From IMG/VR virus record IMGVR_UViG_3300042975_000096: a stretch of 64,000 nucleotides of DNA; one strand, given 5' to 3'. The position numbers and the translations under genes are program-made. Within the stretch, counting starts at the first letter, position 1. Each line of letters starts with the position of its first letter. This DNA is from a virus. Its lineage: Duplodnaviria; Caudoviricetes. Below are positions 10,253-61,116 of this stretch, piece after piece. The notes under the pieces were generated by a model that was not told the DNA's origin, ran no database searches, and saw only the letters and a list, made by a program, of their open reading frames with translations.

Positions 10253-12166
10253 TTAGTTATTAAGGTAATTAATTAAATCATTTTCATTCATAATGGTTAT
10301 TTTTAATTCCCTCGCTTTTTTGGCTTTCGATGAATTTGAATCAGGATTATCAGTTACTAATGCAAATGTTGATTTACTAATAGCACTAGCCACTTTATCT
10401 CCATTATCTTCAATTAGTTTCTTAAAATAACTTCTAGGATGAGATAGTTCTCCTGTAATTACAAAACTATTTGATGTTTTATCATACTTCTTTATATTTA
10501 CATCAATAGGTGTTATATATTTTTTTAACTCCTTATATGCAGATATAAATTTATCCGATGTTAATTTCTCTGCATATGTTTTTCCTATACCTTTTATTTC
10601 AACAAATTCATTTACATTCTTTTTTTCTAAGGCTAATAATAGATTGGTATAGTTCATGTATTTATTGGCAAGCATATTTCCAACATCTTCACCGATACCT
10701 ATAACGCCACATGAAGCAATGAATTTGTTCAAAGGAACATCTTTTCGCGAACCTTGTATTGACTCGTATGTTGATTTTGATTTCTTATCTGAAAATCCTT
10801 CCAGCTCTTTAAAATCTTCAATAACTAAATTAAACATATCCGTAATACAATTTACCTTACCTTGATTGATTAGTTTTTCAATTGCTTTTATACTTAATCC
10901 TTTTGCGTTAAGACATTTCTTTGAAAACACATAATTAATATTTGCAATTAATTTTCCTTGACAATTTGGATTATCACAATACAACTCAAAACCGTTTTGC
11001 TTATCAGATATTCCTTTAGTATTGATTAACATTCGTTTCTTTAATGGTTCATGACAAGAAGGGCATGTGGTTGGAGGTTTTAGCTCATAGCCATTTTCGT
11101 TATGCTTAATAACGTTTGCAATATGAGGGATGATTTGATTCCTTTTTTCAACAAGGATTGTATCTCCAATCATTAGTCCCAAACTTTTAATGATTGCCCA
11201 ATTACTTAATGATGCTTCTTGAACTAATGTTCCATCAATAATTACACCTTCAAATTTGGCAACGGGAGAAATTATTTCACGTCCTACACTCCAATTTACT
11301 TGTTTTAATGTAGTAACGTGTTGTTCCTCTTGTGATTTCCATGCAAAAGCATTTAATGGATGGTGTCTTGTTGACCCAAATTTTTTTAAGCTTCCATCAA
11401 TATTAGATTTGATTACAACGCCATCAATGGGAATGTCCTGTTTCGTATTCTCTTTGTAAAATTCAGGAATAAAATCTTCTGCATCTTTATCTTTAATAAC
11501 ATAATTAATTGTATCAAAACAGGTATGAGATTTAATATAATTCAATTTATTTTCTTCTGATAAATCCAATCCAATTACATCATATGCAATAAATTTAATG
11601 TAATTGATATATGGATTATCATCCAATCGTCTTAAAATGCCACTAGCAGCATTTCTTTCGTTTGCAAATAATTCTAATCCTTGTTCTTTTCTTTCTGCAT
11701 TGATTTTTATTAATGCGCTTTTTGGTAAAAATGCTTCTCCGCGAATAGGATATTCTGAATTATTTTCTCCCATATATTGTTTTGGAAATTTATTTAATAT
11801 TTCACCCTCTGTACCGTTTCCGCGAGTTACAAACATTGATTTTTTGTTTTTTGGATAAACAACAATTGTTAATCCATCAATTTTCTTTTCAATTGCTACA
11901 GGATATAATTTATTTAACATTTTGTGCAATTTATTTGTATCAGAATGTTTAACTTTATCTAATGAGTTCATATTTGCCGTATGCGTGAATGGTTTCAAAC
12001 TTTCTACACGTTTTCCTGCAACAAAGTTTAAATCGCATTCTCCATACAAATCAATATAATCATAGTACAAATTATCATATTCCAAATCAGACATAATTGG
12101 ATTATCCAATTCATAATAAGCTTTGTTTGCATCTTTGATTAATTGTAAATGTTCATTCTTTGTCAT
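10253..12166 (-). CDS. ligA: NAD-dependent DNA ligase
   Basis: AYY..D.P.MSD.EYD, M.SLDK, EKKIDG adenylation motif, TRGNG..GE, RGE, RNAASG, DGVVIK, CPSC/C..C Zn finger, HhH repeats, C-terminal BRCT; start moved to the RBS-preceded ATG at 12166. Confidence 0.97.
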   Translation of the reverse strand: MTKNEHLQLIKDANKAYYELDNPIMSDLEYDNLYYDYIDLYGECDLNFVAGKRVESLKPFTHTANMNSLDKVKHSDTNKLHKMLNKLYPVAIEKKIDGLTIVVYPKNKKSMFVTRGNGTEGEILNKFPKQYMGENNSEYPIRGEAFLPKSALIKINAERKEQGLELFANERNAASGILRRLDDNPYINYIKFIAYDVIGLDLSEENKLNYIKSHTCFDTINYVIKDKDAEDFIPEFYKENTKQDIPIDGVVIKSNIDGSLKKFGSTRHHPLNAFAWKSQEEQHVTTLKQVNWSVGREIISPVAKFEGVIIDGTLVQEASLSNWAIIKSLGLMIGDTILVEKRNQIIPHIANVIKHNENGYELKPPTTCPSCHEPLKKRMLINTKGISDKQNGFELYCDNPNCQGKLIANINYVFSKKCLNAKGLSIKAIEKLINQGKVNCITDMFNLVIEDFKELEGFSDKKSKSTYESIQGSRKDVPLNKFIASCGVIGIGEDVGNMLANKYMNYTNLLLALEKKNVNEFVEIKGIGKTYAEKLTSDKFISAYKELKKYITPIDVNIKKYDKTSNSFVITGELSHPRSYFKKLIEDNGDKVASAISKSTFALVTDNPDSNSSKAKKARELKITIMNENDLINYLNN

Positions 12167-12225
12167 TTTTTTTGCACCTCTCTTTAATAAATAATAACAT
12201 ATTTTTAGCAAAAAGTCAAATGTTA

Positions 12226-42385: not shown

Positions 42386-42769
42386 TCATAATGTATTTAA
42401 TATCGTAACATAATATCTGCAAGCACCTAAAATGTTTCTTTTTTTATAGGAATTAAGAATAATTGATTTTATGGAGTATTTTTCTAATTTCTCATCTTTC
42501 TCCAATAAGAATTTATATTTATGCCATTTACACAAAAAGAACTTATTCGTAACCCATTCGTTTTGAATCAAATGTAACATATCAATAAGAGAACTATCTT
42601 CAACCAGATAAAGATAAACAACCAAAGAATCATTTTCAGTTACTACCTTGACTGAATCAACTTCCATAGAAACGGAATCTATCATATTAACACGAATAAA
42701 TCTTTCTAAATAATCAAGTTGCTTTTCCTTTAACACTTTTTTCATCCCCTTTAATTTATATAATACCAT
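42386..42769 (-). CDS. hypothetical protein; paralog of 47352..47681
   Basis: ENDSLVVYLY.VE.SSLI..L.L..NEWV shared; true start probably a few codons downstream. Confidence 0.75.
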   Translation of the reverse strand: MVLYKLKGMKKVLKEKQLDYLERFIRVNMIDSVSMEVDSVKVVTENDSLVVYLYLVEDSSLIDMLHLIQNEWVTNKFFLCKWHKYKFLLEKDEKLEKYSIKSIILNSYKKRNILGACRYYVTILNTL

Positions 42770-42869
42770 ATATTATTCAATTTGTCAACACTTTTTTAAA
42801 ATATATTATTTCTAAATATTCTGAAACATTATTAATAAAAAAATAAATGGGATATATAATATATCCCAT

Positions 42870-43229
42870 TTAATAACTAACCCAATAGTAGATAGAATAA
42901 TCATCGTCTATGGCTTTAATAGCCTTGCTAATACCTTCTGTATCTGCAACATCGTGACCAAATTTATGATAATTCGGTTCAATATCATAATCTAATGCTA
43001 ATAAAGATTTTGCCATTTTTAACTGTTCTTTATTAAGCAACGTGTATCCCAAATTCGGTATAGATTTTGCAACTCCCATAATAGCAATATGCAATGGTTT
43101 ACTCGACGTGCTATATATAGATTTTGTTTCAAAAATGGCGTGTCTTATATTTTTTGGGCGAATCAAGTAATCATGTTCGTCAATTACCGCTTCAACAGGA
43201 ACGGCAATAAATTTATTATCTATTCCCAT
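42870..43229 (-). CDS. hypothetical protein
   Basis: ORF followed by a terminator. Confidence 0.8.
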   Translation of the reverse strand: MGIDNKFIAVPVEAVIDEHDYLIRPKNIRHAIFETKSIYSTSSKPLHIAIMGVAKSIPNLGYTLLNKEQLKMAKSLLALDYDIEPNYHKFGHDVADTEGISKAIKAIDDDYSIYYWVSY

Positions 43230-43241
43230 TTTCTATACCAC

Positions 43242-43628
43242 TCATTTCATTACCTTCATAAGGTCATTAACAAACTCGAACAAATCCTCTGCTTCAATAA
43301 TCACTTCTTCGTAACCGCCACTATGCCCTTTTTCGTAAGCCCTCTGCCAAACAATATCGAACACTTTTTTGTCCATGCCAAAATCATTGCGAACAGATTC
43401 TTTCAGAACTTCTTCAAGCTCATTCGTTTTATCATAATATGCTTTCCTTGCCTGTTTATAATATTCGTCAATATTGCTTTTGATTTCTTTCTGTTTTGCT
43501 TCCAGCTCTTTCATTGTGCCGACGAACGTTTTTTCAAATTTATCCATTTCTTTTTTTTCAATTTTTCTTTTATCAGGATATGACACAGATTCAATTTCTT
43601 TAATGATTTTTACTGCTTCGTCTGTCAT
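43242..43628 (-). CDS. conserved phage hypothetical protein
   Basis: VW.RAYEKGHSGGY.EV motif; coiled coil. Confidence 0.85.
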   Translation of the reverse strand: MTDEAVKIIKEIESVSYPDKRKIEKKEMDKFEKTFVGTMKELEAKQKEIKSNIDEYYKQARKAYYDKTNELEEVLKESVRNDFGMDKKVFDIVWQRAYEKGHSGGYEEVIIEAEDLFEFVNDLMKVMK

Positions 43629-43702
43629 TTTTTATTCCTTCTTTCTTCAATTCAATCTCTACTATTATAGTATCACATTTTTTATTTTTTGTCAATAGTT
43701 TT

Positions 43703-43906
43703 TTAAATTTCTTCCATTACTCCATATTTTTTCATTTCATATATCATGTGGTTAAATCCTTCATGTGTAACTTCTCGCGTTTTCCGATTAATAAATACAC
43801 TCTCGCCAAAAACTTCGTCATTCATAAAAAACCCAATTTCGTTCTTTTCCCAACGACCACCGCTAAATTCCATATCCATATCAACATCTTTTTTTACAAC
43901 CAACAT
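43703..43906 (-). CDS. hypothetical protein
   Basis: RBS AGGGGG before MLVVKK. Confidence 0.75.
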   Translation of the reverse strand: MLVVKKDVDMDMEFSGGRWEKNEIGFFMNDEVFGESVFINRKTREVTHEGFNHMIYEMKKYGVMEEI

Positions 43907-43919
43907 TGTCAATTCCCCC

Positions 43920-44182
43920 TTAATCATTCACTGACATAACAATTTTTCTTTTTTCAATAAGAGAAACCAAATCCTCAACATATTTCAATTCACGCACCCG
44001 TATGGGTGCGACATAAAGCGTGTAATGGGAAATTATTTCAATTCAGTTTCAACGATTTTGAAATCCAGTTTCATTTCTTCATCCTGCAAAAGCATTTTCT
44101 TTGTTACATTCATTGTAAACAAAACATTATCTTTTCCTTTTGCTTTAATTACATTTTTAATTTCACTCCAAGTAATAAACAT
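43920..44182 (-). pseudogene. small gene interrupted by a 53-bp CRISPR spacer+repeat insertion
   Basis: MFITWSEIK...KIVETELK* (44182-44033); deleting one TGAATTGAAAT copy plus the intervening DNA restores the frame: ...ETELKYVEDLVSLIEKRKIVMSVND* ending at 43920. Confidence 0.7.
43982..44045 (-). CRISPR. type I-C solitary repeat with a 22-nt spacer and an 11-nt partial repeat
   Basis: TGAATTGAAAT (44045-44035) + AATTTCCCATTACACGCTTTAT + GTCGCACCCATACGGGTGCGTGAATTGAAAT (44012-43982). Confidence 0.85.
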
Positions 44183-44344
44183 TTATAACTCCCCCCTTTC
44201 TTTAACTCATACTTAACTCTTATACTATAATACCACAGTATTAAATAATTGTCAACACATTTTTTATTTTATATATTTCTAAATATTCTGAAAACAATAC
44301 GATGGATAAAAAATACAGGTCTATCGTATAGACCTGTATCGATA

Positions 44345-44923
44345 TTATTCTTCTTCCAACTTATTGAGTTCTTCAAGCATAGCTTCTTCTGTCAATTTTT
44401 TAATTTCATTGAATGTATAAACTTTAATCAAGGTGCAACCGTAATACTCGTGATTTTCATCTTTTGATACACTCGCATAACGACCTTGATTGCTTTCCTT
44501 AGTGTTGAACCCTGTATATACTTCAAGGGTATTATCGTCAAGATTGATAATGTATCCCCATTCACAAAATAACGAATCATAAATGAAATTGTTACTGTTA
44601 ATGTAATACGGCAATTTGTTTACAATGTATGCAACAAGATTTCCCTGTGCTTCTCTTAATGCAACGTACCATGATTCTGAATCACATTTAGACATTTCAT
44701 GACGATAATTATAAGCAAGCTCTTTAAGCTCATTTTTTGTCGGCTTTTTATCTTCGTCAACAGCCGTCATCCTATCAAATGCGCTTTTCATATCTTCCAC
44801 TTTATACTCTTTGATTGCTTCAAAAACCTCTTTGCCTAAATAAGTTGGGTAGGAATCACCATGATTATACATAAGTTTATCTTCGTTATTTTTTCTAAAA
44901 CCCCATACGCCACGTGTACTCAT
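44345..44923 (-). CDS. conserved phage hypothetical protein; paralog of 55730..56308
   Basis: MSTRG.WGF...YNH.DSYP..LG...SLFCEWGYIINLD..TLEVY.G. Confidence 0.88.
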   Translation of the reverse strand: MSTRGVWGFRKNNEDKLMYNHGDSYPTYLGKEVFEAIKEYKVEDMKSAFDRMTAVDEDKKPTKNELKELAYNYRHEMSKCDSESWYVALREAQGNLVAYIVNKLPYYINSNNFIYDSLFCEWGYIINLDDNTLEVYTGFNTKESNQGRYASVSKDENHEYYGCTLIKVYTFNEIKKLTEEAMLEELNKLEEE

Positions 44924-45060
44924 TTCAAAAGCCCCTTTTCTTTAACTCTTTTATTAACTCTATACATATAATAACACAACTTTAGTTCTTTGTCAATAGT
45001 TTTTTAAAAATATTTTATCTATATTTTTCAGACTATTATGAAACTATTTATAGGCAAAAT

Positions 45061-45078
45061 AAAAAGGGGTTTCCCCCT
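45061..45078 (-). terminator. terminator closing the CRISPR mini-array transcript
   Basis: AGGGGGAAACCCCTTTTT. Confidence 0.7.
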
Positions 45079-45125
45079 ATTTATTAAAGCCCGAAAACCT
45101 TTCCCCAATCAAGTGTAGCCACAGC

Positions 45126-45221
45126 ATTTCAATTCACGCACCCGTATGGGTGCGACTAATGCCTGAAATTAGATTGACTCTATATCAGGTATTTCAATTC
45201 ACGCACCCGTATGGGTGCGAC
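45126..45221 (-). CRISPR. type I-C CRISPR mini-array (two identical 31-nt repeats, 34-nt spacer)
   Basis: GTCGCACCCATACGGGTGCGTGAATTGAAAT at 45221-45191 and 45156-45126; spacer ACCTGATATAGAGTCAATCTAATTTCAGGCATTA; GTCGC..hairpin..ATTGAAAT is the I-C repeat type. Confidence 0.93.
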
Positions 45222-45421
45222 AGCACACATGCCAAAGCCTTGCTACGCAAGGGTTGAAATGGCACTTTGTGCGAACCCCTTAATATTTTACGAATTTCGT
45301 TGACACGCCCACATGAAAATGCGTATGAACCCTGTAAAACAAAGGGGTGCGAAGCACCTAGCGTTTTTCTGTTCACTTATGCTTCGCACTTATTATAACA
45401 TTATGTTTGTTATTTTGTCAA
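45222..45421 (-). promoter_or_regulatory. type I-C CRISPR leader with promoter
   Basis: GTGCGAAGCA-TAAGTGAACAGAAAAACGCTAGG-TGCTTCGCAC inverted repeat typical of Bacillota I-C leaders; TTGACA-18-TATAAT at 45421-45392. Confidence 0.8.
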
Positions 45422-45680
45422 GTGCTTTTTTTACATTCATTTTCAGACAATTATGAAATACTATAATAAGAATGTATTTTTTTCAAAGATAATTTTTTCT
45501 ACCTTCAATAACACTTTTTTGTGTTCCCATGTATATTTAATATGCTCTTTATTTTTAATCATATATACCTCCATTCCTTCTTGTAATTACCCACATTGGT
45601 TTTTATATCAATGTGGGTAAAACTTATATATATTATATTATAAATGCCCTCACAATTGATTTACCGGCTTTTGACAGATA

Positions 45681-45956
45681 TTAATCCCAATCAATATCTG
45701 TCAAATCTCCAAAATTAACACTCTGTATATACTTGTTTGCTTCTTCGTCAGAATTAGCTTCAACAGTAACATATCCATTTACCTCTAATGTAAGAACGCC
45801 ATCCTCCAAACTGATAGGAGTTCCTTCAATATTATACATTTCTGAACCGCAATCAATTTCAGATATTACATCGCACATATCATTCATAACAGTTGCGATA
45901 TTTTTATATTCTGTATTAAGCTCAATGAATCCCGTTACGGTTTTTGTAATTTCCAT
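45681..45956 (-). CDS. small acidic hypothetical protein
   Basis: RBS AAGGGG; D/E-rich. Confidence 0.8.
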   Translation of the reverse strand: MEITKTVTGFIELNTEYKNIATVMNDMCDVISEIDCGSEMYNIEGTPISLEDGVLTLEVNGYVTVEANSDEEANKYIQSVNFGDLTDIDWD

Positions 45957-45971
45957 TTTAGTTACCCCTTT

Positions 45972-46419
45972 TCATTTCTTTGTATAATCATGTGCACCTT
46001 CACAAGTACACCATTTCTCATGACATTTAGTGCGTTTACCAGACCTCAACAATGTACTCGCAACCGTTACTTTATTGCCACAATCGCATTCACAATCATA
46101 CTTCACCACCATATTTGTTGAAGCCTTTTCATTTTTACAAATAACTCGCAAATGTCCGTACCGTTTGTTAATCAGATTCAGCATTTTTTTACCTTTATTA
46201 TCGCTTGTGGATTTACGTCCTATCCTCACAACCACATGAATGACAACCATTATTTAACTGTCCTGTTGTTCTATACACCATATTACCACATTTGCACTTA
46301 CAAAGCCATAGTGCGTGTTTACCTCTATTCCCTGCACGTTGAATAACTTTCAGACTGCCAAATTCACGTCCTTTTAAATGTGCAACATTATGGTCATACA
46401 TTATAACTTTCGCACTCAT
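45972..46419 (-). CDS. two C.CDCG Zn-binding repeats (AP2/HNH-endonuclease-associated type), split over two overlapping frames
   Basis: LKGREFGSLKV...WLCKCKCGN...L..G..SCGC (46213..46419) and LINKRYGHLRV...CECDCGN.V.V...LRSG (45972..46250); no nuclease domain. Confidence 0.7.
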
Positions 46420-46566
46420 TTCAAATCACCCTCTCTATTATTATAATACCATATATATCTTTATTTGTCAACTATTTTTTAATGTTTTGTTTTGGGATGA
46501 TATTTAGAATAGTTTGAAAACTTATAGCAGACAATAATAAAAGAGGGGATTTCTCCCCCCTTAATG

Positions 46567-51154: not shown

Positions 51155-52318
51155 TTAGTTAGCTAAAGCTAATAGATTCATTACTGCGTTATAATCTCTA
51201 TCTGCGGTGAACCCACACTTATAACATATATATTCATTATGTTTTGTTTTATGTCTTTTATTGCCTGACAAAGTGATTTTATCTTCACCTGTTTTTACAT
51301 GTCCACAACAAGAACATCTTTGAGTTGATGGGTAAAATCTATCAGCTATAATTAACTTTTTTCCATACCAATTACATTTATATGTAAGCAGTTGTCTAAA
51401 TAAACCAAAACACGACCTTTGCAAGCCTTTTGATGCTACATGTGTCATTTGCATATGTTTCACATCTAAATCTTCTATTACTATTGTATCATATTTATCT
51501 GTTAGCATAGTTGTGAATTTATGTAAAATATCATGGGTTAAGTTGCTTGCTTTTTCATAATCACGTTGAAGTTTGGTTCTCACTTTTAAGTAATTATTAC
51601 TCTTGCAAGCGTTTTTCCCTTTTATTATATGCTTTTTCGCTAACATTTTTTGATAATGTTTGATACGATTATAATAAAAGTTTAATTTCTTGGGTAAAAC
51701 ATTCAAATTACCATCAGTGTAATTAAAATGACCTACATTTACATCTATTGCTGTTTTTTTATTTGTTAAAACTTTTGTTTCAACACTGGTTTTATAAGGT
51801 AATGAAGCATAATATTTATTATTGACTTTAGTCACACTAACTACTGTTAAATCGGCATCAAAATTTTTTGGTAAACCTTTGATTTTAATATTTTGCCATT
51901 TTTCTTGAATTTCTCTAGGCTTATCTAATTTTAATTTACCATTTTTAATTGTAATTCTATCTGATTTGAAACCTTGTTTTGTATCTTTTTTGGTTTTGAA
52001 TTTAGGTTTTCCCCAATCAAGCTGAGATTTGCTTAAAAAATGATTCCAAGCATTTCCCAAATCTAAAATTGCTTGTTGTAAAATTCTTGAAGAATATTTA
52101 TATTGCCAATCTTGTTTATTTTCAACAAGTTCATTTCTTACAACACGTTCGTTAGGTGCTTTGTAAGATTTATCGATACAATGTAAATCATACATTTGAT
52201 TCCATGTTTCTAAACCTTGATTCCAACAATATCTGCGATAGTCGCAAAGATTATCTAAAACCTGTTTCATATGTTTGCTTGGATAAAGTTTTACTTTGAT
52301 GGTCTTTATTGTTTTCAA
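51155..52318 (-). CDS. tnpB: RNA-guided endonuclease TnpB
   Basis: KLYP..., R.CWN, PKFK, RuvC AIDVN / VIEDL / DRDYNA, YPSTQRCSCCG...C..CG Zn finger. Confidence 0.95.
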   Translation of the reverse strand: MKTIKTIKVKLYPSKHMKQVLDNLCDYRRYCWNQGLETWNQMYDLHCIDKSYKAPNERVVRNELVENKQDWQYKYSSRILQQAILDLGNAWNHFLSKSQLDWGKPKFKTKKDTKQGFKSDRITIKNGKLKLDKPREIQEKWQNIKIKGLPKNFDADLTVVSVTKVNNKYYASLPYKTSVETKVLTNKKTAIDVNVGHFNYTDGNLNVLPKKLNFYYNRIKHYQKMLAKKHIIKGKNACKSNNYLKVRTKLQRDYEKASNLTHDILHKFTTMLTDKYDTIVIEDLDVKHMQMTHVASKGLQRSCFGLFRQLLTYKCNWYGKKLIIADRFYPSTQRCSCCGHVKTGEDKITLSGNKRHKTKHNEYICYKCGFTADRDYNAVMNLLALAN

Positions 52319-53723: not shown

Positions 53724-53755
53724 ATTTCAATTCACGCACCTCTGTGAGGTGCGAC
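53724..53755 (-). CRISPR. type I-C solitary repeat (32 nt) followed by a ~34-36 nt spacer-like segment
   Basis: GTCGCACCTCACAGAGGTGCGTGAATTGAAAT then ATTGATAGTACGAAGTACCACATGATGCGTTATT. Confidence 0.88.
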
Positions 53756-53955
53756 AGCACACATGCCAAAGCCTTGCTATGCAAGGGCTGAAATGGCACT
53801 TTGTGCAAACCCCTTAATATTTTTCAAAATTCATTGACACATTATCGCCCAAATATGTATTAACCCTGTAAAACAAAGGGGTGCGAAGCACCTAGTGTTT
53901 TTCTGTTCACTTATGCTTCGCACTTATTATAACATTTTACTTATTCATTTGTCAA
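53756..53955 (-). promoter_or_regulatory. second copy of the type I-C leader with promoter
   Basis: Co-linear with and largely identical to 45222-45421. Confidence 0.85.
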
Positions 53956-54106
53956 GTATTTTTTATTCAAACGAATTTTCGTTTGAAATTTTACTTATTT
54001 CTGCGCTTGCAATATGAAAATCATCACAAGAAATATTCAAAGACAATGATTGATTGGAATCATACATATATGTAGAAGAAATCATATCCATTGTTGTCCT
54101 CCAATC

Positions 54107-59452: not shown

Positions 59453-59749
59453 TTATTTAACTCTTTCATGATAATTTAAAACCGCTTTTATTTTCCCCTC
59501 CGAACGATATCGGCAATATGCAGAAAACTTCCTGCTGGTTTGTTTATCAAATTCATTAATTTGTTTTACCGCTTCTGCTCTTGAATCCATCACCCCAAAA
59601 AAAGCACTCTTTAATGGTGTGATTGGATTAATTTTTTTATCATGTTTTTTGTGAATATCTAGTTTAATACATTCATGTAAATAATCTCTAGTTTCATTAT
59701 TCAACAATTTAAAATTATGTACATCAATTAATCCAAACACCATTCCCAT
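59453..59749 (-). CDS. hypothetical protein
   Basis: Coupled to the cca stop codon. Confidence 0.7.
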   Translation of the reverse strand: MGMVFGLIDVHNFKLLNNETRDYLHECIKLDIHKKHDKKINPITPLKSAFFGVMDSRAEAVKQINEFDKQTSRKFSAYCRYRSEGKIKAVLNYHERVK

Positions 59750-60978
59750 TATTTACAATCCCCATTTCCAATTTTCATTTCAAGCACTTTATTTTGTAAT
59801 GCTTTAATTTTTAAATTACGAACAAACGCTTTAATATCACTTGTTTTTTTCATGTGTGATGGAATTGAAATGTTAACCGAATTAACTAATTTGAAAATCG
59901 GTTCTTCCAAAAACCATGCAACATTATTTGAATCAGCATTCACAATTTGTCTAAATCCTTCTCTATCAATGTTTTTATGTTTCATTTCAGTCAACATATC
60001 CACAATTTTACCAAGGTTCTTCATGTTAATCACTCGCATGTGATAATTTGAAGTAAATTTTGCCATTGTTTTCCATTTATTCAAATACGTCTGTGGTAAT
60101 GATTCAATCAAATCAACTCCTACAACGTCATGTCCTCTATATGGTGCTTCAAGCGCACCCTTGCCAATATCATGTGTTAATGCAGAAAACCTCACACAAA
60201 CGTCATTATTGACCTGCGAAACCTTATCCAAAATCAACATGGTATGTTCAAATGCATCACCTTCAGGATGCCATTTCCTTGACTGCTCTTTGCCAATCAA
60301 ATTAAATACAAATGGAAATGTAACATCTAATAAATCCGCTTCTTTCAAAATTCTAAAAAAAGTTGAAGGTTTATCTGTACTTAAAGCCTTTATTAATTCC
60401 GTAACAAAACGCTCATTAGATTCCTTTGCCAATTCTTCTTTGCATAATTTCATTTGTTCCATTGTACTTGAATCGACCGAAAATCCAAATTGTGTAGCCT
60501 GTCTTGCAACCCTCAACGCTCTTACAGGGTCTTCGCTGAAATGATAGGATACATGCCTAATCACCTTGCGTTTAATATCCTCCATACCATTAAACAAGTC
60601 CACAATTTCGCCTGTGAGAACGTTTTTAGCCATTGCATTAATAGTTGTGTCACGTCTGATTAAATCATCCTGCAAGGTAATAGAAGGGTCAAAAAAAATC
60701 TTAAACCCTGTGTAGCCAAATCCTGTTTTGCGTTCTTTTCTTGCGAATGCAACTTCCATTTCTTCGCCGTCAAATTCCATTCTATATACAGGAAAAGAAT
60801 TTCCCATATATGTTGCATTAGGAAACCGTTTATTAAAATCAGATTCTTTAACTCCACAAATCATTAAATCATAATCATGTGGAATTCTTTTCATGATTTC
60901 ATCCCTAACACATCCACCAACAAAATATGCAGTTCCATGCAATTCTTTAATTATATTTGCAAACTCAATAACATTCAT
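59749..60978 (-). CDS. cca: CCA-adding tRNA nucleotidyltransferase with HD domain (multifunctional CCA type)
   Basis: YFVGGCVRD..HDYD, E.A.AR.E, DDL.RRD.TINAMA, F.EDP.R.LR.AR, HPEGD.F.H, HDIGK; start at the RBS-preceded MNVIEF. Confidence 0.92.
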   Translation of the reverse strand: MNVIEFANIIKELHGTAYFVGGCVRDEIMKRIPHDYDLMICGVKESDFNKRFPNATYMGNSFPVYRMEFDGEEMEVAFARKERKTGFGYTGFKIFFDPSITLQDDLIRRDTTINAMAKNVLTGEIVDLFNGMEDIKRKVIRHVSYHFSEDPVRALRVARQATQFGFSVDSSTMEQMKLCKEELAKESNERFVTELIKALSTDKPSTFFRILKEADLLDVTFPFVFNLIGKEQSRKWHPEGDAFEHTMLILDKVSQVNNDVCVRFSALTHDIGKGALEAPYRGHDVVGVDLIESLPQTYLNKWKTMAKFTSNYHMRVINMKNLGKIVDMLTEMKHKNIDREGFRQIVNADSNNVAWFLEEPIFKLVNSVNISIPSHMKKTSDIKAFVRNLKIKALQNKVLEMKIGNGDCK

Positions 60979-61116
60979 TTCTCTCACCTCTATTATAAAT
61001 AATATCATATTTACATTGTTTTGTCAATGTATTTTTAATAGCACCGTTAAATTTCAGAATATTTAGAAACAAAATCATCGATAAAAAAATAAGAGGGAAA
61101 TATCCCCCTTACTTTT

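Follow-up and report, generated by a model that had tools for sequence, protein, structure and literature searches.

A leaderless solitary type I-C CRISPR repeat, SRU-1, lies in 64,000 nt of phage DNA (Caudoviricetes, IMG/VR record IMGVR_UViG_3300042975_000096; the whole stretch is hereafter called the window). It appears, on balance, to be a derived allele, mainly the scar or ground state of CRISPR-array activity that knocked out a non-essential gene. By alignment with undisrupted relatives, the event is the replacement of 77 nt in the middle of a gene by approximately 55 nt of array-type DNA. Solitary CRISPR repeats are known in phages, some of them act as RNA anti-CRISPRs, and their origin has so far been speculative. 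SRU-1 is a fresh instance of this known kind, the viral solitary I-C repeat, and its value lies in its population context and in the PAM signature at the junctions.

Results

Layout of the SRU-1 locus

All genes of the window are on one strand, with a GC content of 25–34%, and almost all small genes have individual consensus promoters. A near-identical locus is carried by a metagenome contig of 430,772 bp (L001), and the phage is therefore a huge phage. It carries several type I-C units that lack cas genes. The coordinates of SRU-1 and related features are given in Table 1.

Table 1 Features of the SRU-1 locus and of the other repeat units. A slash marks the fusion point in the undisrupted allele.
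Feature	Position	Strand	Remarks
SRU-1, leaderless solitary type I-C repeat, GTCGCACCCATACGGGTGCGTGAATTGAAAT	43982..44012	-	31 nt, perfect
49-aa ORF, 5' part of the 94-aa ORFan early gene	44033..44182	-	ends ETELK-stop
Native 8-nt repeat-tail mimic TGAATTGA, left recombination junction	44038..44045	-	in all intact alleles
Captured CRISPR-array DNA: AAT (completes the 11-nt handle), 22-nt segment (44013-44034), repeat	43983..44037	-	from the alignment
3' remnant of the 94-aa gene, YVEDLVSLIEKRKIVMSVND-stop	43920..43981	-	first base comes after TTT in intact alleles
Downstream 67-aa gene, co-transcribed with SRU-1	43703..43906	-	RBS overlaps the old stop codon
Sigma-70-type early promoter, TTGACA-17-TATTAT + TG	44227..44255	-	11 of 12 consensus positions, extended -10
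Mini-array, two repeats identical to SRU-1 and a 34-nt spacer	45126..45221	-	
Mini-array promoter	45392..45421	-	
Mini-array leader		-	~170 nt
Mini-array terminator	45064..45078	-	
Pseudo-spacer past the last mini-array repeat	45079..45125	-	3' end of the 59-aa gene
Third I-C unit: promoter, homologous leader, single variant repeat	53724..53755	-	fused to the last ~40 nt of the 113-aa gene
Junction 1, SRU-1			ATTTTT/ATGTTGAGG
Junction 2, L005			GGTTTC/TCTTATTG
Junction 3, mini-array trailer			CATTTTC/GCTATGG, in the 59-aa gene (L007)
Junction 4, 53724 unit			GGTTTC/ATTGATAG, in the 113-aa gene
Junction 5, second leaderless repeat (L007/L008/L003)			GTTCTTTT/TGTGTAAATGG, i.e., TTT; third repeat variant

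On the minus strand, the locus reads GAAAC-TGAATTGAAAT (44045-44035), the 22-nt segment (44034-44013), GTCGCACCCATACGGGTGCG+TGAATTGAAAT (44012-43982), and ATGTTGAGG. The 49-aa ORF starts with an ATG at 44182 after an RBS and ends VETELK-TAA, and the 11 nt up to and including its stop are the TGAATTGAAAT copy at 44045-44035. The 62 nt past SRU-1 are read in another frame up to a stop, and they end exactly at the RBS of the next gene. The promoter at 44227-44255 is predicted to drive the interrupted gene, SRU-1, and the next gene, and no terminator-like site was found between it and 43703. The hairpin of SRU-1 has 7 bp (−13.3 kcal/mol, z −3.6). The window contains three copies of the 31-mer (43982, 45126, and 45191; 0 expected) and five of the 11-mer (0.52 expected), and the nearest other full repeat is 1,114 nt from SRU-1.

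These data bear out the letter-level description of 43920-44182 in the original prediction, which had placed the tail copy, the 22-nt segment, and the perfect 31-nt repeat correctly and had matched the repeat to both repeats of a mini-array 1.1 kb upstream (31-mer matches at 45126 and 45191). Its further reading of the element as a lone type I-C repeat within an early phage mRNA is supported.

Replacement of the middle of a 94-aa gene

Removal of 53 bp, as originally suggested, does open a 69-aa frame. However, a search with this hypothetical protein retrieved uninterrupted homologs of 94 aa (P0004-P0006) instead of a natural 69-aa form; they read ETELRMIDENYKVMLVPIVEKYAESYKRDFYVEDL / KIVETELRMIDENYKVMLVPIVEKYAESYKRDFYVEDLVSL and do not end at ETELK. 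In the DNA alignment, which comprised 25 contigs of this phage species with flanks approximately 99% identical, the intact gene has TGAATTGA, 77 nt, and TATGTTGAGG, while the interrupted allele has TGAATTGA, a 55-nt stretch (AAT, the 22-mer, and all of the repeat except its final T), and TATGTTGAGG. The proposed 53-bp insertion is thus contradicted, with 77 nt lost and approximately 55 nt gained. On the left, the native sequence is TGAATTGA followed by G, i.e., 8 of the 11 bases of the mimic. On the right, it is CGTGATTTT/TATG, which does not contain the 11-mer. Because 8 of the 11 left bases are native and the right side has no native 11-mer, the event was a replacement and not an insertion with target duplication. 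The donor ran through a complete repeat and was therefore array-shaped, with a tail, a short segment, and a repeat.

The native repeat-end mimic assumed at the outset consequently survives as eight bases and not as a complete 11-nt element. Microhomology capture is a fair description of the left junction on this native tail mimic, and it finds no native 11-mer on the right. Outside the CRISPR units, the native 8-mer has only six copies on this strand of the 64 kb, and microhomology with the repeat tail is well supported by this rarity. The likeness to a mature crRNA (handle, spacer, and 3' hairpin) is lost, because the second 11-mer is non-native and the donor spans the whole repeat. Apart from the 69-aa frame, nothing in the alleles speaks for a 53-bp copy of a mature crRNA at a native 11-nt mimic; with the intact alleles at 94 aa, a non-native second 11-mer, and 77 nt missing, this model is hardly credible, and the same holds for an assembly artefact. 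A chimera is excluded because identical junctions recur in at least 13 independent contigs from 11 metagenome samples.

Searches of Pfam, PHROGs, and PADLOC assigned the 94-aa protein to no family, the atlas gave no lead above 0.9, and among 1.8 billion representatives its only relatives were in its own cluster; by these searches, it is an ORFan confined to this phage.

Alleles in the phage population

The interrupted (SRU) allele was found in these same 13 or more contigs (JGI, ENA, and Logan), of which those with identical junctions include the window, L001-L004, L085, and L087-L091. The intact allele was found in 11 contigs from nine samples. The SRU allele is on at least three haplotypes, each of which is nearer to an intact-allele contig than to the other SRU haplotypes, and this distribution alongside intact relatives indicates an established, recombining polymorphism. 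L001 and L087 come from one JGI sample (3300051660) and represent two coexisting strains. Each has the interrupted allele; the first 60 nt of the gene differ between them, and the main array has two repeats in L001 and one in L087.

Three further alleles occur at the site. In L005, another 19 bp are deleted after the repeat. In L082, the gene is lost from just past its RBS up to CTCTTATTG. L006 shares the left junction and the 22-mer with the SRU allele and continues with a repeat, a 32-nt spacer, a repeat, a 33-nt spacer, and a repeat (at least three repeats); it is a 520-bp contig of low coverage, and its right end lies beyond the contig. The existence of these alleles indicates that the gene is dispensable and that the site is a hot spot.

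PAM-like triplets at the junctions

Five independent terminal repeats abut phage DNA that runs into a 3' gene stump, and each time a sister strain is undisrupted (junctions 1–5 in Table 1). The triplet before the fusion point in the undisrupted alleles is TTC in three cases and TTT in two. With sense-strand triplet frequencies of 1.4% (TTC) and 4.1% (TTT), five TTY junctions out of five would occur by chance with a probability of about 5e-7, for a pattern that was noticed after the fact. SRU-1's own junction has TTT, the weaker motif and the commoner one by chance (4%). The deletions seen are short and local, from 19 nt to 1.1 kb.

Within a CRISPR array, a spacer adjoins the tail of the repeat upstream of it by its PAM-proximal end. 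The junctions thus have the geometry of a self-derived integrated spacer that runs into phage DNA. TTC is the canonical type I-C PAM, and TTT and TTN have also been recorded for I-C (PMC8482600). All five junctions follow TTC or TTT, a pattern suggesting that spacers were derived from the phage's own DNA and recombined with their protospacers. Judged from these sequences, a PAM-linked origin is well supported over the five junctions and explains the SRU-1 locus only partly.

Mini-array and other repeat units

The mini-array forms a promoter-leader-repeat-spacer-repeat-terminator cassette (45064-45421). This main array has one repeat in L087 and L088, two in the window and L001, and three in L007, and strains that are approximately 99% identical have no spacer in common. 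The window and L001 have different single spacers and an identical trailer junction. The variable repeat number and the unshared spacers among near-identical strains indicate that the arrays are live. In L007, the 59-aa gene is located approximately 1.1 kb downstream, past a 274-aa gene, and the fusion point there is preceded by TTC. In L007, L008, and L002, the last array repeat is 14 nt before the ATG of the 274-aa gene (L007 2518-3960), with no promoter between, and transcription of this gene would extend the pre-crRNA. The exact 274-aa protein of L007 was found in already known contexts only.

At 53724-53960 on the minus strand (L093/L096 vs L094/L097), a promoter, a leader of approximately 165 nt, and the variant repeat GTCGCACCTCACAGAGGTGCG stand in place of the middle of a 113-aa acetyltransferase-like gene. 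This gene is intact in six sister contigs, with TTC before the fusion point; a 42-aa stump and the last ~40 nt are left in the window. The stump is only approximately 80% identical to the start of the intact gene and may thus have been imported from a more distantly related lineage. In the 430-kb strain, this site holds repeat-spacer-repeat.

A second leaderless solitary repeat, a variant with the loop GTATA, is present in L007 (5666-5697), L008 (3018-3049), and L003 (997-1028). It replaces a 119-aa gene and the 5' part of a 127-aa gene, approximately 700 nt that the window keeps at 42535-43241. All four combinations of this allele with the SRU-1 allele were found among the strains. On the left side, both leaderless repeats have a native tail mimic (TGAATTGA at SRU-1; TGAAATGA after a 128-aa gene in L007), AAT, a short foreign segment, and the repeat.

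In the leaders at 45346-45358 and 53880-53895 (both minus strand), a terminator-like GC hairpin with a T run, GGTGCTTCGCACC CCTTTGTTTT, is located approximately 35 nt after the promoter. These hairpins may be an attenuator of array transcription.

Repeat class and search for a source

We assigned repeats to type I-C by a length of approximately 31–32 nt, a GTCGC start, a GC-rich hairpin of 6–7 bp, and an 11-nt 3' tail ending ATTGAAA[C/T]. SRU-1 belongs to this class, with GTCGC, a stem-loop, and then GTG[A/G]ATTGAAA[T/C]. Its exact repeat is absent from the GTDB species genomes, IMG/VR, and the JGI contig set. Repeats with two or three mismatches to it occur in long multi-repeat arrays of Clostridia and Treponema genomes, and a relaxed repeat pattern matched I-C repeats at two to six mismatches only, across many phyla. 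No host was found in samples of 400 Clostridia and 400 Bacilli. The region 43000-46000 has no Rfam CRISPR-DR match, and no cas genes are among the ten largest ORFs of the window.

Neither similar DNA nor a spacer against the gene was found in the INPHARED phages or PLSDB plasmids, and the phage, plasmid, and genome searches also gave no spacers matching the junction protospacers. For four array spacers, searches of IMG/VR, the window, and all retrieved loci gave no target. A TTC-flanked seed match to the 22-mer, originally proposed as a short guide, was found neither in the window nor in 65 I-C genome loci or IMG/VR, and the same searches gave no source for this segment. A 29-mer of the interrupted gene is absent from the JGI contig set. 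Distant relatives of the 192-aa protein encoded between the main array and the interrupted gene were found in IMG/VR (36–39% identity), and they have no I-C repeats.

Discussion

Origin of the solitary repeat

We propose a model in which the type I-C adaptation machinery of the host (Cas1-Cas2-Cas4) would load spacers into the phage-borne arrays on infection. Much of the available DNA would be the phage's own, and some spacers may come from nearby phage DNA beside a PAM. A self-derived spacer would form a direct repeat with its protospacer and would make the phage genome a target. Recombination between spacer and protospacer, or array-templated repair after Cas3 damage, could then produce a repeat-protospacer fusion in which the PAM is gone, the intervening DNA is deleted, and the array is back to a single repeat. 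The survivors would be only those with short local deletions of accessory genes. The L082 allele looks like a plain Cas3-type outcome at the L005 target, because its deletion stops 2 nt short of the L005 protospacer and the TTC there has become ATC. SRU-1 may also regrow into an array, as L006 suggests. The broader proposal, that phage arrays fed by host I-C adaptation take up self spacers and that recombination then sculpts the genome and gives birth to solitary repeats, is plausible to us and is put forward tentatively.

The 192-aa gene is still present and intact, and this excludes a simple deletion from the main array. The SRU-1 locus therefore needs either gene conversion or templated repair, or an earlier array within the gene similar to that in L006. 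The short foreign segment, 22 nt at SRU-1 and 11 nt at the second leaderless repeat, lies outside the account given by this model. Reading the handle and the 22 nt together as one 33-nt spacer was rejected, as the companion case gives 22 nt and no consistent ruler emerges.

A neutral scar of illegitimate recombination, in which an array fragment was copied by microhomology and TTT stands at the right junction by chance with no link to spacer acquisition, would fit the dispensable gene (lost in L082), the 8-nt left microhomology, the frequency of TTT in an AT-rich genome (4%), and a genome full of identical, recombinable repeats. Nevertheless, four more junctions lie right after TTC or TTT, three of them at the rare TTC, which is hard to reconcile with PAM-blind recombination, and we consider a purely neutral scar improbable. 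A selected function as an RNA anti-CRISPR (Racr), in which the transcript would titrate host Cas5d and Cas7 off anti-phage crRNAs as RacrIC1 does, has in its favor the perfect repeat with a stable hairpin, the strong consensus-matching early promoter approximately 215 nt upstream, the similar layout of RacrIC1 with a small ORF just upstream in the same mRNA (PMC10651486), and the intermediate frequency of the SRU allele in many samples and on several haplotypes. However, the locus decays further in L005 and vanishes in L082, no acr-like neighbor was recognized, and an inhibitor would oppose the phage's own promoter-driven arrays, which depend on this same I-C machinery. The population diversity of approximately 1% is too low for repeat conservation to inform on selection. 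Owing to the dependence on I-C and the decay in some strains, we rate a selected Racr function lower than the scar and regard it as unlikely.

The remaining alternative is a short guide of the Cracr/crlRNA type, in which the handle, 22 nt, and repeat would steer a non-cleaving Cascade to a host promoter (cas or toxin). Viral crlRNAs are similar, with short spacers of 17–21 nt in type I-F, and type I-C cases have also been reported (bioRxiv 10.1101/2024.10.29.618823). I-E Cascade accepts shortened spacers (PMC5159557), and the second leaderless repeat in the sister phages has the same layout. On the other hand, the hairpin upstream of the handle mimic is no better than chance (AU hairpin, z −0.07 vs shuffles), so that a Cas5d cut of the 5' end is unlikely, and 8 of the 11 handle bases are native coding sequence. 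In addition, the seed searches with the 22-mer were negative, and the companion segment of 11 nt is too short for a guide. We therefore judge a guide function very improbable.

A scar of phage-borne array activity accordingly remains our preferred reading of SRU-1. Within one natural population, the same sites occur in the state before the event, in the state after it, and as several side products, and the PAM signature at the junctions implicates the spacer-acquisition machinery. If the model is true, cas-less phage arrays would be actively loaded during infection, and self-targeting would be a regular cost through which huge phages lose accessory genes. Decoy repeats and mRNAs led by a repeat would arise as by-products open to selection. 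Such CRISPR-driven sculpting of phage genomes would provide a natural route to solitary repeat units and the raw material for Racr. At this locus, a dispensable gene is available as isogenic intact, SRU, and deleted alleles.

Possible RNA products and relation to known systems

In an I-C host, Cas5d is predicted to cut the SRU-1 transcript at the hairpin base, an activity established by Nam 2012 and Garside 2012 as cited in PMC10651486. The products would be a 5' fragment ending in the repeat hairpin and a downstream mRNA led by the 11-nt handle. A Racr-like decoy-RNA side effect is plausible by analogy, because the layout, just after a small ORF in one mRNA, resembles that of RacrIC1. As in the Racr described by Camara-Wilpert et al. 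2023 (PMC10651486), SRU-1 is a lone I-C phage repeat behind a promoter and downstream of a small ORF, with no cas genes among the window ORFs tested. Its predicted promoter, a consensus match 215 nt upstream (44227-44255), is within the 250 bp used as a Racr criterion. For SRUFinder, a repeat is solitary if it matches a CRISPR repeat over its full length and if neither a second full repeat nor a partial one of at least 50% coverage lies within 100 bp of it (PMC10651486); SRU-1 conforms to this definition, and the upstream 11-mer, which equals 35% of the repeat, might still trip the flank filter. Unlike Racr, which occupies an intergenic cassette of its own, SRU-1 lies within a gene that was disrupted recently. 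Further differences are the functional-looking mini-arrays that this phage has with the same repeat and the polymorphism of the site, with intact, further-deleted, and array-bearing alleles; an anti-CRISPR role here is only putative. Racr often, though not always, lie beside acr genes; the neighbors of SRU-1 are ORFans or PHROGs of unknown function, with no notable PADLOC match.

SRU-1 shares with Cracr (bioRxiv 10.1101/2024.10.29.618823) a phage-borne order of degenerate first repeat, short spacer, and second repeat. In contrast to the upstream repeat-like element that gives the 5' handle in Cracr, the first "repeat" of SRU-1 is an 11-nt tail, or handle, without a hairpin. With a target defined as at least 9 PAM-proximal nt matching a host cas or creT promoter or a CreR/CreA spacer, no cas or toxin promoter match was found in the loci searched.

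CRISPR arrays of huge phages were reportedly described by Al-Shayeb et al. in 2020. Virus-borne mini-CRISPR arrays have been described by Medvedeva et al. 2019 (PMC6858448) and reviewed (PMC11656645). The units of the present phage are likewise cas-less, with their own leader and promoter, zero to two spacers, and rapid spacer turnover, and they presumably use host Cas proteins. A mini-array is defined by a spacer of normal length between two or more repeats, usually with a leader; SRU-1, in contrast, is leaderless and consists of a single repeat, and at this site only L006 has three or more repeats. The new feature is that, under the proposed model, the trailing end of each unit is the phage's own former protospacer. 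Recombination between spacers and protospacers of phages and CRISPR loci is said to have been reported in 2019 by Varble et al. in Nat Microbiol. As in that case and in self-targeting deletions, the spacer and protospacer would serve as short homology and self-targeting would be resolved by deletion. In the present case, however, the phage itself carries the array, its own neighboring genes supply the protospacers, and repeat-protospacer fusions persist as the fixed products. To our knowledge, a signature of such fixed fusions has not been described previously.

Other features of the window

Near-identical early promoters (TTGACA-17-TGnTATAAT, repeat family D1) precede almost every small gene in 42750-46483 (minus strand), and intrinsic terminators follow most units in the same region. 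An IS605-family TnpB of 387 aa is encoded at 51155-52318 (minus strand), approximately 350 nt downstream of a 285-aa gene that comes after the 53724 unit. Metagenome copies of this TnpB are 85–92% identical, and its closest named relatives are from Ligilactobacillus and Enterococcus cecorum (62–66% identity); they were considered as a pointer to the host and rejected as too distant. The window also encodes an NAD-dependent DNA ligase with a BRCT domain (10253-12211, minus strand) and an enzyme of the CCA-adding/poly(A)-polymerase family (59749-61008, minus strand).
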